From Escherichia coli (GTDB lineage: Bacteria > Pseudomonadota > Gammaproteobacteria > Enterobacterales > Enterobacteriaceae), in the NCBI RefSeq assembly GCF_003334315.1, contig NZ_QOWR01000036.1: DNA of 46,318 nucleotides. The stretch is one strand, 5' to 3'. Under the pieces are notes generated by a model. It saw nothing but the letters and a program-made list of their open reading frames with translations. It made no database searches and was not told where the DNA came from. The translations under genes were made by a program, and so were the position numbers. Below are positions 10,525 to 20,012 of this stretch, in pieces (the stretch's first letter is position 1; the number at the start of each line of letters is the position of its first letter).

Positions 10525-12117
10525 CTATAACCCAGGCGCTTTCCATAACGACGTCGTCAGTCCATGATCAACCAGCCCCAGCTGATCCTGATAAACTGCC
10601 TGCCACTTATCGCGTGAATCCTGATAAAGTTCATGCTTTTCCGGGTCTGGTGTGTGCGTCCGTTCCCAGCGAACCAGGCGTTCTCCGGTTTCTGCCATTG
10701 ATGAAAAAATTCCGGCACCGACGCCAGCTGCAATGGCACATCCTAATGCAGTGGCTTCTTTGACCACCGGAATATTGACGGGTAATCCCGAGACATCAGC
10801 GAGAATTTGACTCCATAATTTCCCTTTTGAACCTCCGCCTGCAAAGACTAACGATGAAGGATGAATATTCGAGAAATCAGCAATTTGCTGCAAGTTACAC
10901 GCTGATACAATCGCCGCATTTTCTTCCAGCGCACGGAACAATGTCGCTTTGTTACATTTATCCGGGTCAATGGACAAGTTAATAAAGGAAGGCGCAGCGT
11001 GATACCAGGTTTTAAAGCGCATTCTGTCGGAGAATATCGGCATTACGCCCCACGACCCAGGCGGCACCCGGCTGGCCATCTCTTCCAGCAGCGTATAGGT
11101 GTCGATGCCTAAACGTTCGGCAATCAGTTTTTCTTCGGCACAGAAAGCATCGCGGAACCAGCGCATGGTGAGTCCGGTAAAAAAGCTTATAGATTCAGCT
11201 TGTACCATGCCAGGAATAACATGAGGATTAACGCGCACGTTCATTTCTGGGTCTGTCACCGGCGCGGCTAAATTTACAACTTGCTGCCAGAATGTGCCGC
11301 CAAGAACCGCGGTTTGTGCCGGACGCACAACGCCTAACCCAAGGCTACCAAGCTGCACGTCGCCTCCTCCAACGACCACCGGAGTGCCTGCCTTCAGACC
11401 GCAGAGTTCCGCCGCTTGTGAACTTACCACGCCCAGCAATGTGCCGGTTTCTTTGACAGGAGAAAGAATATCGGCACGCAGGCCAGCCATATCCAGCAAT
11501 GCAGGTTTCCAGTCACGGGTGGTTAGATCAAGAAGTCCCGTGGTGCCAGCGTTAGAGGGATCCACCGCCAGTTCGCCGCTGAGCATATAGGCCAGCCAGT
11601 CGCTGATCATGGTGATGGTTGATGCCTGACGGTAAATATCGGAACGATGGTGCGCCAGCCAAAGTAATCTGGGGATGGCACTTAAAGCCAGTGTTTGTCC
11701 GGTCGCGCGATAAACTTCGTTTTCAAAGGTATTGTTGTGCAGTTCTTTAAGTTCGCTAACTTCGCGCGCCGCTCTGGCATCCACATTGGCGCAGGCCCAG
11801 ATCGGTGTTCCTTCATTGTTATATAAAACAATGCCTTCACGCATAGAACATGCCGAAACGGCAGCGATATACTCCGGGTCTATGCCGGCGTTGTGCAGCG
11901 CCTGGCGCATACACTCACACGCCAGTTGCCAGTTTTTGTTGAGATCAAATTCCATAGAACCAGGAACGTCCGGTACTGCCAGATGCCGCCACTCCGCCTG
12001 TCCCACTGCTATTTGATTGCCTTCCAGGTCGAATATCACAGCCCGAATACTTCCGGTGCCTGCATCCAGCGCCATCAGGTAGTACTTTGATTCTGAAGGG
12101 GTAAAGAGTCGAGCCAT
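10525..12117 (-). CDS. lsrK: autoinducer-2 kinase LsrK
   Basis: 530 aa, [30 protein letters not shown]...; FGGY-family kinase. Confidence 0.95.
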
Positions 12118-12195
12118 TAGATTATCCTCGGCTTATGCGTTCTGTCTGTTCCTCTATACGTTCTCCATCATTCCCGGTAATAAGGTCATGCAAAT

Positions 12196-13149
12196 TTAAC
12201 AACGTAAAATCGCCGCTGCTGTGTCCTGATCGGTAACCAGTGCGTTGATATAACCGCCTTTCATTGCAGCGGCAATTGCTTCGGCTTTATTTTCTCCCCC
12301 TGCCACGCCAACCCGGACGGGTATGGTCTTCAGCGCGCTTAAAGGTAAGCCAATCAGTTCGTTATGTATTTTGATATCCGTGACAACGTCACCTTTTGCA
12401 TCAAAAAAGTAGCCTAAAATGTCGCCAACCGCCCCTTTTCGGCCAATCATTAACTGTTCGCCCTGGCTGATATAACCGGAGCGAATGATCGTCGCGTCGT
12501 CTTGTTGACTCACGGCCCCAATGCCGACAATCGCCACATCCGCTGCTTGCGCGGCTAGCAGAACATCTTTGACGCAATTTTCATTTTTTAGCGTACGGGC
12601 AATGTCAGCGGAGGATGCCCGCAACGGAGCCGGAATAATATTCACACTGCACGCCGCGTTAAGCTGCCCGATACCCGTCATATAAGAACCGACGCCACCG
12701 GAGAGCGTGACCAGGCGAATTTGCTGTGACGAAATAAAACCACTTAAGCGTTGCAGCGTATTCATGGTTGCCTCGCCAAAACCAATCGCCAGCATCTGTT
12801 GTGGTTGAAGTAAACTCATCAACATATGCGCCGCGCCTATCCCTAGTCGCCCGCCGACATCAGCATCCGCAAGCCCAGGGATCACCCGGACATGTTGCAG
12901 CGAAAACTGACGACGTAATTGTGTTTCATATTCCAGACAGCCTTCAAAGCGAGAATTAATCTGCACGCGAATGATGCCGGACTGATGCCCTTTCTCCAGT
13001 AATCGCGACACTTTCAAACGGGTCAGGCCGAGACGATCGCTGATCTCACTCTGGGTCAGCCCGTCGTGGTAGTAAAACCACGCGATCCGCGCGACCTGTT
13101 CTTCTTCACACATTCCCTGTTCTGAAATTACTGAATCGTTGATTGTCAT
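12196..13149 (-). CDS. lsrR: lsr operon repressor LsrR
   Basis: 317 aa, [51 protein letters not shown]... Confidence 0.95.
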
Positions 13150-13397
13150 AATTCATTCTTCACTTTGAACATATTTAAATCTTTAATGCAATTGTTCAGT
13201 TCTTGCGCATTTATATCTGTGATGGCAACCACAGTTTGACTCTACGAGCATGAACAAACGCAACCGTGAAAATCAAAATAGCATAAATTGTGATCTATTC
13301 GTCGGAAATATGTGCAATGTCCACCTAAGGTTATGAACAAATTAAAAGCAGAAATACATTTGTTCAAAACTCACCTGCAAAACTGAACGGGGGAAAT
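13150..13397. promoter_or_regulatory. divergent lsrR / lsrACDBFG promoter region
   Basis: 248-bp AT-rich intergenic region between divergent lsrR and lsrA; individual LsrR/CRP sites not resolved by eye. Confidence 0.5.
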
Positions 13398-14933
13398 ATG
13401 CAAACGAGTGATACCTGCGCGTTACCGCTACTTTGCGCCCGCTCGGTTTATAAACAGTATTCAGGGGTCAATGTCCTGAAAGGCATCGATTTTACGTTGC
13501 ATCAGGGGGAGGTCCACGCCCTGCTCGGCGGCAATGGTGCCGGTAAATCGACGTTAATGAAGATTATTGCCGGTATTACCCCTGCTGATAGCGGTACGCT
13601 GGAGATTGGAGGCAACAACTACGTCAGATTAACGCCAGTTCATGCTCATCAGCTGGGTATTTATCTCGTTCCCCAGGAACCGCTGCTTTTCCCAAGCCTG
13701 TCGATAAAAGAAAACATCCTGTTTGGGCTGGCAAAAAAACAGCTCTCCATGCAGAAAATGAAGAACTTGCTGGCGGCGCTGGGCTGCCAGTTTGATCTGC
13801 ATAGTCTGGCAGGATCGCTGGATGTCGCCGATCGCCAAATGGTGGAAATCCTCCGCGGGCTGATGCGCGACTCGCGGATTCTGATCCTCGATGAACCTAC
13901 CGCCTCGCTTACCCCTGCGGAAACCGAACGCTTGTTTCGTCGCTTGCAAGAGCTGCTTTCTACTGGCGTGGGTATTGTTTTTATCTCGCATAAGCTGCCG
14001 GAAATTCGCCAGATTGCCGATCGAATTAGCGTGATGCGCGACGGAACCATCGCCTTAAGCGGCAAAACCAGCGAACTGTCTACCGACGACATTATTCAGG
14101 CCATCACTCCAGTGGTACGGGAAAAATCGCTCTCTGCCAGCCAAAAATTATGGCTGGAGTTACCTGGTAACCGCCCACAACATGTCGCCGGAACGCCGGT
14201 GCTGACACTGGAAAATCTGACCGGCGAAGGTTTCAGGAATGTCAGCATGACGCTCAATGCCGGAGAAATTCTGGGCCTGGCTGGGCTGGTGGGGGCCGGA
14301 CGCACAGAACTGGCCGAGACGCTCTATGGTCTGCGTACTTTGCGTGGCGGACGCATTATGCTGAATGGTAAAGAGATCAATAAATTATCCACTGGAGAAC
14401 GTTTACTGCGCGGTCTGGTTTATCTGCCGGAAGATCGCCAGTCATCCGGACTGAATCTCGATGCTTCGCTGGCCTGGAACGTCTGCGCCCTTACTCATAA
14501 CCTTCGTGGATTCTGGGCGAAAACCGCGAAAGATAATGCCACCCTGGAACGTTATCGTCGGGCGCTGAATATTAAATTTAACCAACCGGAACAAGCTGCA
14601 CGGACATTATCCGGTGGCAACCAGCAAAAAATCCTCATTGCCAAATGCCTGGAAGCTTCGCCGCAAGTATTGATTGTCGATGAGCCGACGCGCGGCGTGG
14701 ATGTCTCGGCCCGTAATGATATCTACCAGCTGTTGCGCAGCATCGCCGCACAAAATGTGGCTGTGCTGCTTATCTCCTCCGACCTGGAAGAGATCGAACT
14801 GATGGCAGATCGTGTGTATGTGATGCATCAGGGCGAAATTACCCACTCTGCACTGACCGGGCGCGATATTAATGTCGAGACTATTATGCGCGTTGCCTTC
14901 GGCGATAGTCAGCGTCAGGAGGCGTCATGCTGA
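13398..14933 (+). CDS. lsrA: AI-2 ABC transporter ATP-binding protein LsrA
   Basis: 511 aa with two ABC ATPase domains ([17 protein letters not shown]). Confidence 0.95.
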
Positions 14934-15955
14934 AGTTTATTCAGAACAACCGTGAAATCACGGCACTGCTGGCGGTGGTGCTGCTGTTTGTATTACCCGG
15001 TTTTCTCGACCGCCAGTATTTAAGTGTGCAAACGCTGACCATGGTTTATAGCAGCGCGCAAATCCTGATCCTGCTGGCAATGGGCGCGACGCTGGTAATG
15101 CTTACGCGCAATATTGATGTTTCAGTGGGTTCGATTACCGGAATGTGCGCGGTGCTGTTGGGGATGTTACTGAACGCAGGATATTCACTACCTGTTGCTT
15201 GTGTCGCGACTTTACTGCTTGGTTTGTTCGCGGGATTTTTCAACGGTGTCCTGGTCGCGTGGCTAAAGATCCCTGCCATTGTTGCCACCCTTGGCACGTT
15301 AGGGTTGTACAGAGGCATCATGTTGCTGTGGACTGGCGGTAAATGGATTGAAGGGTTACCCGCTGAACTGAAACAGCTCTCCGCCCCGCTGCTGCTTGGC
15401 GTTTCAGCAATTGGTTGGTTGACGATAATTCTGGTGGCATTTATGGCCTGGCTGCTGGCGAAGACGGCGTTTGGACGCAGTTTTTATGCCACGGGCGATA
15501 ATTTACAGGGCGCTCGTCAACTGGGCGTTCGTACGGAAGCCATTCGCATTGTGGCATTTTCGTTGAACGGCTGCATGGCGGCACTGGCGGGAATTGTGTT
15601 TGCTTCGCAGATTGGTTTTATCCCCAACCAGACCGGTACCGGGCTGGAGATGAAAGCAATTGCAGCCTGCGTGCTGGGCGGCATTAGTTTGCTCGGCGGT
15701 TCCGGTGCGATCATCGGTGCGGTACTCGGCGCATGGTTCCTGACGCAGATCGATAGCGTACTGGTGCTGTTGCGCATTCCGGCATGGTGGAACGATTTTA
15801 TCGCGGGCATGGTTCTGCTGGCGGTGCTGATGTTTGATGGACGCCTGCGTTGTGCGCTGGAACGTAATATACGGCGGCAAAAATATGCCCGCTTTATGAC
15901 GCCACCGCCATCCGTTAAACCCGCTTCGTCAGGTAAAAAACGGGAGGCCGCATAA
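14927..15955 (+). CDS. lsrC: AI-2 ABC transporter permease LsrC
   Basis: 342 aa polytopic membrane protein; overlaps lsrA by 7 nt. Confidence 0.95.
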
Positions 15956-16947
15956 TGCGTATTCGCTACGGTTGGGAACTGGCTCTTGCCGCACTGCTCG
16001 TTATTGAGATTGTCGCATTTGGTGCAATTAACCCGCGGATGTTAGATCTCAATATGTTGCTGTTCAGCACCAGTGACTTTATCTGCATTGGCATTGTCGC
16101 CCTACCGCTGACGATGGTGATTGTCAGTGGCGGGATCGATATTTCGTTTGGTTCGACCATCGGCCTCTGCGCCATTGCATTGGGCGTACTGTTTCAAAGT
16201 GGTGTGCCGATGCCGCTGGCGATACTCCTGACCTTACTGCTCGGCGCATTGTGCGGGCTGATCAACGCCGGATTAATTATCTATACCAAAGTTAACCCGC
16301 TGGTGATTACGCTTGGCACGCTGTATCTGTTTGCCGGAAGTGCCCTGCTGCTTTCCGGGATGGCCGGAGCGACGGGGTACGAAGGTATTGGTGGATTCCC
16401 GATGGCGTTTACAGATTTCGCTAACCTCGATGTGCTGGGACTCCCCGTTCCGCTGATTATCTTTCTGATATGTCTCCTCGTTTTCTGGCTCTGGCTGCAT
16501 AAAACCCATGCCGGACGTAATGTGTTTTTGATTGGGCAAAGCCCGCGCGTGGCGCTTTATAGCGCGATTCCTGTTAACCGTACCTTATGTGCGCTCTATG
16601 CCATGACGGGGCTGGCGTCTGCGGTCGCCGCTGTGCTGCTGGTGTCGTATTTTGGTTCAGCACGTTCCGATCTCGGTGCGTCATTTCTGATGCCCGCCAT
16701 CACCGCCGTGGTGCTTGGCGGGGCCAATATTTATGGTGGTTCCGGTTCCATTATCGGCACCGCCATTGCGGTTTTATTAGTGGGATATTTGCAACAAGGT
16801 TTGCAAATGGCAGGAGTGCCAAATCAGGTGTCCAGCGCCCTTTCCGGTGCGCTACTTATCGTCGTTGTCGTAGGTCGTTCCGTTAGCCTGCATCGCCAGC
16901 AAATTAAAGAGTGGCTGGCGCGTCGGGCCAATAACCCATTGCCATAA
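15955..16947 (+). CDS. lsrD: AI-2 ABC transporter permease LsrD
   Basis: 330 aa membrane protein; start overlaps lsrC stop. Confidence 0.95.
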
Positions 16948-16958
16948 AGGATATCTTC

Positions 16959-17981
16959 ATGACACTTCATCGCTTTAAGAAAATCGCCTTACTTAGCGCT
17001 CTTGGCATTGCCGCAATCTCTATGAATGTGCAGGCCGCAGAGCGTATTGCATTTATTCCCAAACTGGTTGGCGTGGGATTTTTTACCAGCGGTGGCAACG
17101 GCGCACAACAAGCGGGTAAAGAGCTGGGCGTTGATGTGACCTACGACGGGCCGACAGAACCCAGTGTTTCTGGTCAGGTACAGTTGATTAATAACTTCGT
17201 CAATCAAGGTTATAACGCCATTATCGTTTCTGCGGTTTCGCCTGATGGCTTGTGTCCGGCACTGAAACGCGCCATGCAACGTGGTGTGAGAGTGCTGACC
17301 TGGGACTCTGATACTAAACCGGAGTGCCGCTCTTACTACATTAATCAGGGAACGCCCGCCCAGTTGGGAGGTATGTTGGTGGATATGGCTGCGCGTCAGG
17401 TGAATAAAGACAAAGCCAAAGTCGCGTTTTTCTACTCAAGCCCCACCGTTACGGACCAAAACCAGTGGGTGAAAGAAGCGAAAGCGAAAATCGCCAAAGA
17501 GCATCCAGGCTGGGAAATTGTCACTACGCAGTTTGGCTATAACGATGCCACTAAATCGTTACAAACCGCAGAAGGAATATTAAAAGCGTATAGCGATCTC
17601 GACGCCATTATCGCCCCCGATGCCAACGCCCTGCCCGCTGCCGCACAAGCCGCAGAAAACTTGAAAAATGACAAAGTAGCGATTGTCGGATTCAGTACGC
17701 CAAACGTGATGCGTCCATATGTGGAACGCGGCACGGTGAAAGAATTTGGTCTGTGGGATGTGGTTCAGCAAGGCAAAATTTCAGTGTATGTCGCGGATGC
17801 ATTATTGAAAAAAGGATCAATGAAAACGGGCGACAAGCTGGATATCCAGGGCGTAGGTCAGGTTGAAGTCTCGCCAAATAGCGTTCAGGGCTATGACTAC
17901 GAAGCGGATGGTAATGGCATCGTACTGTTACCGGAGCGCGTGATATTCAACAAAGAGAATATCGGCAAATACGATTTCTGA
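16959..17981 (+). CDS. lsrB: periplasmic AI-2 binding protein LsrB
   Basis: 340 aa with N-terminal signal peptide [26 protein letters not shown]. Confidence 0.95.
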
Positions 17982-18007
17982 TGTGCATTACTTAACCGGA
18001 GTAAGTT

Positions 18008-18883
18008 ATGGCAGATTTAGACGATATTAAAGATGGTAAAGATTTTCGTACCGATCAACCGCAACAAAATATCCCTTTTACCCTGAAAGGTTGCGGTGCG
18101 CTGGATTGGGGAATGCAGTCACGCTTATCGCGGATATTTAATCCGAAAACGGGTAATACCGTGATGCTGGCCTTTGATCATGGTTATTTTCAGGGGCCGA
18201 CTACCGGACTTGAACGCATTGATATAAATATCGCCCCGCTGTTTGAACATGCCGATGTATTAATGTGTACGCGCGGCATTTTGCGCAGCGTAGTTCCCCC
18301 AGCGACCAATAAGCCGGTGGTACTGAGGGCGTCAGGTGCGAACTCTATTCTGGCGGAATTAAGTAATGAAGCCGTGGCGTTATCGATGGATGATGCCGTG
18401 CGCCTGAACAGTTGCGCGGTGGCGGCGCAGGTTTATATCGGCAGCGAATATGAACATCAGTCGATCAAAAATATTATTCAGCTGGTTGATGCCGGAATGA
18501 AAGTGGGAATGCCGACCATGGCCGTGACTGGCGTGGGCAAAGATATGGTGCGCGATCAGCGTTATTTCTCGCTCGCGACTCGAATCGCCGCTGAAATGGG
18601 GGCGCAAATTATCAAAACCTATTATGTCGAAAAAGGTTTTGAACGGATTGTTGCCGGATGTCCGGTACCCATTGTTATTGCTGGCGGTAAAAAATTACCG
18701 GAGCGCGAGGCGCTGGAAATGTGCTGGCAGGCTATCGATCAGGGCGCTTCTGGTGTGGATATGGGGCGTAATATTTTCCAGTCTGACCATCCGGTGGCGA
18801 TGATGAAAGCCGTACAGGCGGTGGTTCACCATAACGAAACGGCTGATCGAGCATATGAACTCTATCTGAGTGAAAAACAGTAA
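18008..18883 (+). CDS. lsrF: LsrF, class I aldolase-fold thiolase of the AI-2 pathway
   Basis: 291 aa, [28 protein letters not shown]... Confidence 0.95.
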
Positions 18884-18906
18884 CTGCGGATCTAAGGAGA
18901 AGAATT

Positions 18907-19197
18907 ATGCACGTCACACTGGTTGAAATTAACGTTCATGAAGACAAGGTTGACGAGTTTATCGAAGTTTTTCGCCAGAACCACCTGGGCTCTGTACAGG
19001 AAGAAGGCAATTTGCGCTTCGATGTCTTACAGGACCCGGAAGTGAATTCGCGCTTTTATATCTACGAAGCCTATAAAGATGAAGACGCAGTGGCGTTCCA
19101 TAAAACCACGCCCCACTACAAAACCTGTGTCGCGAAACTGGAATCTTTAATGACCGGGCCGCGTAAAAAACGTCTGTTCAATGGTTTGATGCCGTGA
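18907..19197 (+). CDS. lsrG: LsrG, phospho-AI-2 isomerase
   Basis: 96 aa, [40 protein letters not shown]... Confidence 0.95.
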
Positions 19198-19253
19198 GGC
19201 GAATTTATCAATTTTATCTACAATTGGGGTAACGCGCTGACGGGAGTAAAAAA

Positions 19254-20012
19254 ATGTCTGACTGGAACCCCTCTTTATATTTGCACTTTTCCGCTGAACG
19301 ATCGCGTCCGGCGGTGGAGCTGCTTGCCAGAGTGCCGCTGGAAAATGTCGAATATGTTGCCGATCTTGGCTGTGGCCCAGGTAACAGCACCGCCCTTCTA
19401 CAACAACGTTGGCCTGCGGCCAGGATAACAGGCATCGACTCGTCTCCGGCGATGATTGCTGAAGCGCGCAGTGCTTTGCCAGACTGCCAGTTCGTGGAAG
19501 CAGACATCCGCAACTGGCAACCGGTACAGGCACTCGATCTGATTTTTGCTAATGCCTCACTGCAATGGCTGCCCGACCACTACGAATTGTTTCCTCATCT
19601 GGTTTCTTTACTTAATCCGCAGGGCGTGCTGGCAGTACAGATGCCAGATAACTGGCTGGAGCCGACCCATGTGCTCATGCGCGAAGTTGCCTGGGAACAA
19701 AACTACCCGGATCGCGGGCGTGAGCCGTTGGCTGGCGTTCATGCTTACTACGATATTTTGAGCGAAGCCGGATGTGAGGTCGATATCTGGCGAACCACCT
19801 ACTATCACCAGATGCCGTCACACCAGGCGATTATCGATTGGGTGACTGCCACTGGATTACGTCCGTGGTTACAGGATCTGACCGAGAGCGAACAGCAGCT
19901 TTTTCTTAAGCGCTACCATCAGATGCTGGAAGAGCAGTATCCACTGCAAGAGAACGGACAGATACTGCTGGCATTTCCGCGTCTGTTTATTGTTGCCCGG
20001 CGTATGGAGTAA
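19254..20012 (+). CDS. tam: trans-aconitate 2-methyltransferase
   Basis: 252 aa with SAM-binding motif [12 protein letters not shown]. Confidence 0.95.

Follow-up and report, generated by a model that had tools for sequence, protein, structure and literature searches.

The closest described relatives of the locus analysed here are the Lsr systems for autoinducer-2 (AI-2) of Escherichia coli K-12 MG1655, encoded by lsrRK and lsrACDBFG (b1511-b1518), and of Salmonella Typhimurium, encoded by lsrACDBFGE and a divergent lsrRK; Salmonella Typhimurium has an extra gene, lsrE, after lsrG. In a survey of 44 E. coli strains, only 38% had kept the whole lsr operon; it had been lost independently on at least eight occasions, mostly through large truncations, and its decay was linked to insertion sequence (IS) activity around lsr (Brito et al., PMC3595036). 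Here we describe the lsr locus found in a window of 46,318 nt (the whole stretch of DNA that was analysed) from Escherichia coli, assembly GCF_003334315.1, contig NZ_QOWR01000036.1; all coordinates are positions in this window. From its sequence, we have very little doubt that the locus represents a canonical and intact E. coli Lsr AI-2 system. An lsr locus in its usual chromosomal context is known biology; it is no discovery and implies no new biology.

Gene content and identity

In a six-frame listing of open reading frames (ORFs), the minus strand carries lsrK and lsrR, and the plus strand carries lsrA, lsrC, lsrD, lsrB, lsrF and lsrG in the divergent direction. The locus is delimited by its two outer stop codons, with the lsrK stop (minus strand) ending at 10525 and the lsrG stop at 19197. 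The genes, with protein lengths in amino acids (aa) and with the score and cutoff of the matching NCBIfam equivalog model, are as follows.

10525 to 12117, minus strand: lsrK, autoinducer-2 kinase, 530 aa; NF008187, 999.6 bits (cutoff 528), full length
12196 to 13149, minus strand: lsrR, SorC/DeoR-type repressor responding to phospho-AI-2, 317 aa; NF011947, 619.6 bits (cutoff 486)
13398 to 14933, plus strand: lsrA, ATP-binding cassette (ABC) transporter ATPase with two nucleotide-binding domains, 511 aa; NF011967, 955.1 bits (cutoff 586)
14927 to 15955, plus strand: lsrC, permease, 342 aa; NF011961, 665.8 bits (cutoff 388)
15955 to 16947, plus strand: lsrD, permease, 330 aa; NF011612, 597.3 bits (cutoff 500)
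16959 to 17981, plus strand: lsrB, periplasmic AI-2 binding protein, 340 aa; NF011937, 700 bits (cutoff 384)
18008 to 18883, plus strand: lsrF, 3-hydroxy-5-phosphonooxypentane-2,4-dione thiolase, 291 aa; NF006081, 559.4 bits (cutoff 297)
18907 to 19197, plus strand: lsrG, phospho-AI-2 isomerase, 96 aa; NF007791, 191.8 bits (cutoff 135)

All eight ORFs begin with ATG and contain no internal stop codon. Every one of the eight proteins exceeds the cutoff of its own equivalog model with end-to-end coverage of the model, and at 192-1000 bits against such specific models chance is of no concern for the gene identities. A preliminary description of this DNA had proposed the names lsrK to lsrG; they agree with the equivalog matches and with the best-matching RefSeq records, near-identical genomes that annotate the same eight names at the same relative positions. 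The divergence of lsrK and lsrR from lsrACDBFG, claimed in the same description, is borne out by the strands and coordinates of the ORFs and by the organisation of K-12. Its claim of tight or overlapping junctions also holds, as lsrA and lsrC overlap by 7 nt and lsrC and lsrD by 1 nt (TAATG). The remaining plus-strand genes are separated by gaps of 11 nt (lsrD-lsrB), 26 nt (lsrB-lsrF) and 23 nt (lsrF-lsrG), and a purine-rich, Shine-Dalgarno-like motif precedes each.

The evaluation of gene identity has to take account of the relationship of Lsr proteins to sugar transport systems. The proteins match the RbsA, RbsC, RhaS and XylB family models, among others, as well, and the cluster could on this basis be read as a ribose- or rhamnose-type sugar ABC transporter accompanied by a pentulose kinase rather than as an AI-2 system. 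However, the sugar-system models all score below their own cutoffs (for example RhaS: 252 against 342, XylB: 194 against 380), whereas the Lsr cutoffs are widely exceeded. LsrB retains D166 and A222, the residues that tell AI-2 binders from rhamnose binders, and the locus shares about 99% of its sequence with the K-12 genes, which have been characterised experimentally. The equivalog cutoffs, the LsrB residues and the K-12 identity together rule out the sugar-transporter assignment, to which we attach a vanishingly small probability.

Comparison with E. coli K-12 MG1655

The K-12 locus has the same eight genes in the same order and on the same strands, with the same lengths, starts, stops, overlaps and spacer lengths. 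Over 8,673 bases the two loci differ by 87 substitutions (99.0% identity), with no indels and no internal stops. The preliminary description had proposed alignment to a reference lsr operon as a check, and this alignment to K-12 reveals no frameshift, truncation or indel inside the locus; all nine gaps of the 41.8-kb alignment of the window to K-12 fall outside it. With the K-12 lengths retained and the cutoffs passed by all eight proteins, the claim of a complete locus with full-length ORFs is confirmed.

The proteins differ from those of K-12 at 23 positions in total (LsrK: 4, LsrR: 3, LsrA: 8, LsrC: 4, LsrD: 0, LsrB: 1, LsrF: 3, LsrG: 0). LsrD is identical in protein sequence and lsrG is identical even as DNA. 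The changes in LsrK are L7P, A80D, A104T and C258S, those in LsrR are A7V, N258D and S317C, and those in LsrF are K20Q, K50N and R102K; K297Q is the sole difference in LsrB.

Window positions 2658-44453 are collinear with K-12 from hipA to ydfJ at 99.4% identity and correspond to K-12 1.59-1.63 Mb. The neighbours of lsr are the same in K-12, with the yneO autotransporter pseudogene upstream and tam downstream. In both the window and K-12, lsrG is followed directly by tam, in contrast to the lsrG-lsrE arrangement of Salmonella Typhimurium, which otherwise has the same system and mechanism.

Functional residues and structural matches

Full-length alignments to solved Lsr structures from E. coli or Salmonella were obtained for five of the proteins (LsrR: PDB 4l5i and 4go1, LsrK: 5ya0, LsrF: 3gkf, LsrB: 5gta, LsrG: 3qmq). 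LsrF also matches 4p2v, and LsrB matches the Salmonella structure 1tjy over residues 26-340 (625.6 bits, E = 1.5e-187).

Functional LsrB receptors are marked by K35, D116, D166, Q167, P220 and A222 (PMC3386761), and all six of these AI-2 site residues are present in the LsrB of the window. In LsrF, K203 (catalytic), D57 (general base) and G226, G227, G253 and R254 (phosphate binding) are intact, as are D251 and M252 (functional residues from PMC2728841). LsrK is an FGGY kinase in which the residues of the HPr pocket, E122, L123, I148, L151, L152, A155, Y162, M210 and A211, are intact; these residues and the steps of the Lsr pathway have been summarised (PMC8016206). The eight changes of LsrA from K-12 spare its Walker A motif (residue 44), both of its Walker B motifs (161 and 424) and its LSGGN signature.

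Variation in LsrA and LsrC

The lsrA gene differs from that of K-12 by 12 nucleotides, which fall into eight nonsynonymous and three synonymous codon differences. In lsrC, a G>A change at 15830 converts GTG to ATG and gives V302M; this codon is GTG in K-12 and in two further strains, 162.2 and 2018-11-3CC. V302M is a conservative change and is either a private variant or possibly a base-call error.

No point in the sequence argues against a canonical and intact Lsr system, but some caveats apply. When eight lsrA alleles are compared, R7C, A188S and A263V are specific to the allele of the window. The 141 bases around 15830 are matched exactly by 0 of 4,254 complete E. coli genomes in which this segment is present, the best match being 99.3%. 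With respect to a complete AI-2 circuit, luxS, the gene for the signal synthase, is not in the 46-kb window. In E. coli, luxS is located elsewhere on the chromosome. It was found in all natural strains examined by Brito et al. (PMC3595036).

These variants raise the question of whether a locus with an intact sequence could nevertheless be impaired in function, with LsrC V302M, the LsrA changes R7C, A188S and A263V, or both reducing transport as an early stage of the lsr decay common in E. coli. The segment around 15830 with its nonsynonymous change, the eight to three ratio of codon differences in lsrA and the eight or more independent losses of lsr function in E. coli (PMC3595036) are in favour of such a weakening. 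However, a change from valine to methionine is conservative in a membrane protein, and the Walker motifs, the signature and the other known functional residues are untouched. The LsrA allele of the window (WP_001194849.1) recurs in two separate genomes, those of strains 162.2 and 2018-11-3CC, in which it is annotated. An excess of nonsynonymous polymorphism in lsrA is found across the species, with codons 76, 181 and 482 as targets, and has been attributed to diversifying selection (Brito et al., PMC3595036). Codon 181, a published target, encodes S, R, I or T among our eight alleles, and codons 76 and 482 vary too. At positions 71 and 488 it is K-12 that is the odd one out, so that two of the eight LsrA differences (E71G and E488G) arose on the K-12 side. 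Finally, published lsr decay consists mostly of truncations and indels, and the locus of the window has none. We therefore reject incipient decay as the explanation of the LsrA excess, because the pattern is species-wide and published, two of the changes belong to K-12 and no motif is touched, and we consider a functionally weakened locus very unlikely. An intact Lsr system remains our conclusion. The judgement of the preliminary description that nothing in the locus is unusual was thus essentially right, but has to be qualified by LsrC V302M, by the amino acid excess in LsrA and by a cluster of substitutions relative to K-12; intactness is unaffected by any of these.

Clustering of substitutions and likely recombination

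The single-nucleotide polymorphisms (SNPs) that separate the locus from K-12 are concentrated in a block of about 7.8 kb, 11035-18850, which begins within lsrK, reaches the end of lsrF and nearly coincides with the lsr locus. This block holds 87 SNPs (1.11%), compared to eight in 13.6 kb of both flanks (0.06%; approximately 99.94% identical; binomial P ~3e-29). The pattern suggests that 11035-18850 is likely a homologous-recombination tract that separates the K-12 lineage from the lineage of the window; the import could have been into either lineage. Across the window, divergence from K-12 is mosaic, with blocks of about 1% (11035-18850, 24067-24395 and 32001-44446) between stretches of near-zero divergence, and these blocks probably reflect recombination tracts.

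The coincidence of the block with the locus could be taken further, to a replacement of the whole locus, through homologous recombination, by another allele that was then kept by the balancing or diversifying selection on AI-2 reception that has been proposed for E. coli, with the private LsrC V302M as a further functional tuning. As comparable patches of SNPs are found at 24067-24395 and 32001-44446, selection specific to lsr is not demonstrated, and we judge this extended scenario unlikely.

Control region and likely terminator

The regulatory features predicted in and beside the locus are listed below; a strand is given where one applies.

13150 to 13397: lsrR-lsrA divergent control region, 248 bp; one substitution relative to K-12 (13207 T>G)
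13166 to 13198: putative LsrR operator by lsrR (p-lsrR box), palindrome TGAACA-N21-TGTTCA, 33 nt; from the motif and the published position
13218 to 13233: CRP-like site TGTGATGGCAACCACA, one mismatch to TGTGA-N6-TCACA; sequence identical to K-12
13311 to 13318: TGTGCAAT element, putative CytR site; adjoins CRPI in the literature
13334 to 13366: putative LsrR operator by lsrA (p-lsrA box), palindrome TGAACA-N21-TGTTCA, 33 nt; -64 to -32 from the lsrA ATG
10481 to 10520, minus strand: likely intrinsic terminator for lsrRK, formed by a 12-bp hairpin and a subsequent run of U; starts 5 nt past the lsrK stop

The pattern TGAACA-N21-TGTTCA occurs twice in the 46-kb window, against 0.04 matches expected by chance, and both matches lie in the lsrR-lsrA spacer. 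The two palindromes are 76% identical to each other and are spaced 168 bp apart. The published p-lsrR box extends from -237 to -197 relative to the lsrA start codon and contains the cores AACAAT and AAGATTTAA (PMC5137460). This interval corresponds to 13161-13201 of the window and encloses the first palindrome, on the reverse strand of which both AACAAT and AAGATTTAA are found. By position and cores, the palindrome at 13166-13198 is the published p-lsrR box, a putative LsrR operator. We suggest from its position that the palindrome at 13334-13366 corresponds to the published p-lsrA box and would likewise be an LsrR operator. The single substitution in the control region, 13207 T>G, lies between the p-lsrR box and the CRP-like site and is outside all identified boxes.

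Two CRP boxes, CRPI and CRPII, have been described in the lsr control region of K-12 (PMC5137460), and TGTGATGGCAACCACA is a candidate for one of them. Matches to the CRP pattern are no more frequent across the window than expected (18 found, 21 expected); the assignment of TGTGATGGCAACCACA therefore rests on its position between the LsrR boxes, its identity with K-12 and the published boxes. A TGTGA half-site is also present in the control region at 13289-13293. The TGTGCAAT element has been described as a putative CytR element beside CRPI, and a G>A change within it strengthens the lsr promoter (PMC5137460). A generic sigma-70 promoter scan returned five sites compared to 12.0 in shuffled sequences, with none usable in the control region.

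Downstream of lsrK, the RNA of 10470-10530 (minus strand) folds at -19.7 kcal/mol (z = -3.95), and 0 of 200 shuffled sequences were as stable. The hairpin at 10481-10520 is thus a plausible terminator of lsrRK. A simple terminator scan was uninformative and, owing to a loop of more than 8 nt, missed this hairpin. A scan of the whole window at the Rfam gathering threshold gave no RNA family in or beside the lsr locus.

Proposed mechanism

Our account of function is drawn from work on K-12 and Salmonella (PMC8016206), from which we infer expression and activity in the strain of the window. LsrB would bind AI-2 (R-THMF) in the periplasm and deliver it to the permease formed by LsrC and LsrD, for which the LsrA ATPase would supply the energy. 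Imported AI-2 would then be phosphorylated by LsrK, a step that HPr is expected to inhibit. The resulting phospho-AI-2 would free LsrR from the two palindromic operators of the 248-bp control region and so de-repress both lsrRK and lsrACDBFG, with cyclic AMP-CRP presumably acting as co-activator of the lsr promoters. To end the signal, LsrG would isomerise phospho-AI-2 and LsrF would then move an acetyl group to coenzyme A, giving dihydroxyacetone phosphate and acetyl-CoA.

Distribution and related loci

The distribution of the locus was evaluated by megablast of positions 10400-19300 against 5,426 complete E. coli genomes. The locus was matched in 5,345 of these, and in 4,161 (77%) at least 80% of it was found in one piece; lsrA is present in 4,174. 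Intactness of lsr is the majority state but is not universal. As lsr belongs to the less stable regions of the E. coli genome, the record of an intact receiver bears on the likely phenotype, namely AI-2 uptake and quenching. The intact locus is also a reliable annotation and gives a fixed core-genome point from which the remainder of the window can be read.

Save for two SNPs over 8.9 kb, the lsr region of the window is identical to those of strain 162.2 (NZ_CP059929.1) and of about 14 further complete genomes. Relative to strain 162.2, the window has an A at 15830 (LsrC V302M) and a T at 17750, which is synonymous (LsrB G264). The two share the protein accessions of LsrK, LsrR, LsrA, LsrD, LsrB, LsrF and LsrG, and the frameshifted autotransporter neighbour is found in strain 162.2 likewise. 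A higher-scoring megablast match in two pieces, H15, has IS1 downstream of lsrK and shows the same two differences from the window.

In strain 2018-11-3CC (NZ_AP021895.1, 12174-12871), IS1 is inserted in the spacer between yneO and lsrK, with the transposase gene ending 31 nt from lsrK; the window has no such insertion. This insertion illustrates the IS activity that has been tied to lsr decay.

Surroundings of the locus

The neighbour of lsrK is an autotransporter gene of the ECSE_1600 family (yneO; 4575-9994, minus strand), in which one frameshift near 5324-5336 separates two ORFs of 1553 and 249 aa. These match model positions 1-1552 and 1558-1806, which places the frameshift inside the beta-barrel domain. 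The pseudogene is also found in K-12 and in strain 162.2, and across the three its total lengths are 5422, 5421 and 5420 nt. As the lengths differ, the frameshifts cannot all be the same.

Beyond hipA, window positions 455-2657 are not K-12-like; at this place K-12 carries yneL and the fimbrial genes ydeQRST. Two ORFs in this segment, 945-1379 and 1532-2479, have no NCBIfam match and are annotated in other genomes as hypothetical proteins, once as a TolA C-terminal domain protein. At the equivalent position, strain 2018-11-3CC has integrase fragments, IS1 and IS5.

At the other side, identity with K-12 decays past ydfJ (29 SNPs and five gaps in 44204-44446) and ends where K-12 carries the Qin cryptic prophage. 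In the window, this site (within 44204-45864) has about 1.4 kb of AT-rich DNA (GC content 0.35-0.37) with no ORF longer than 86 aa, followed by IS1. Window positions 1-454 are the exact reverse complement of 45865-46318, and both encode the C-terminal part of the IS1 transposase. The window is thus bounded by inverted partial copies of IS1 that are cut at one internal point, and looks like a draft contig broken inside a repeat. Some complete genomes carry IS1 at both of the sites that correspond to the window ends.

The only match in the window at the Rfam gathering threshold is STnc560, an Hfq-binding small RNA, at 34643-34856 (minus strand; 281 bits), which corresponds to the mgrR/mgtS/mgtT region of K-12.

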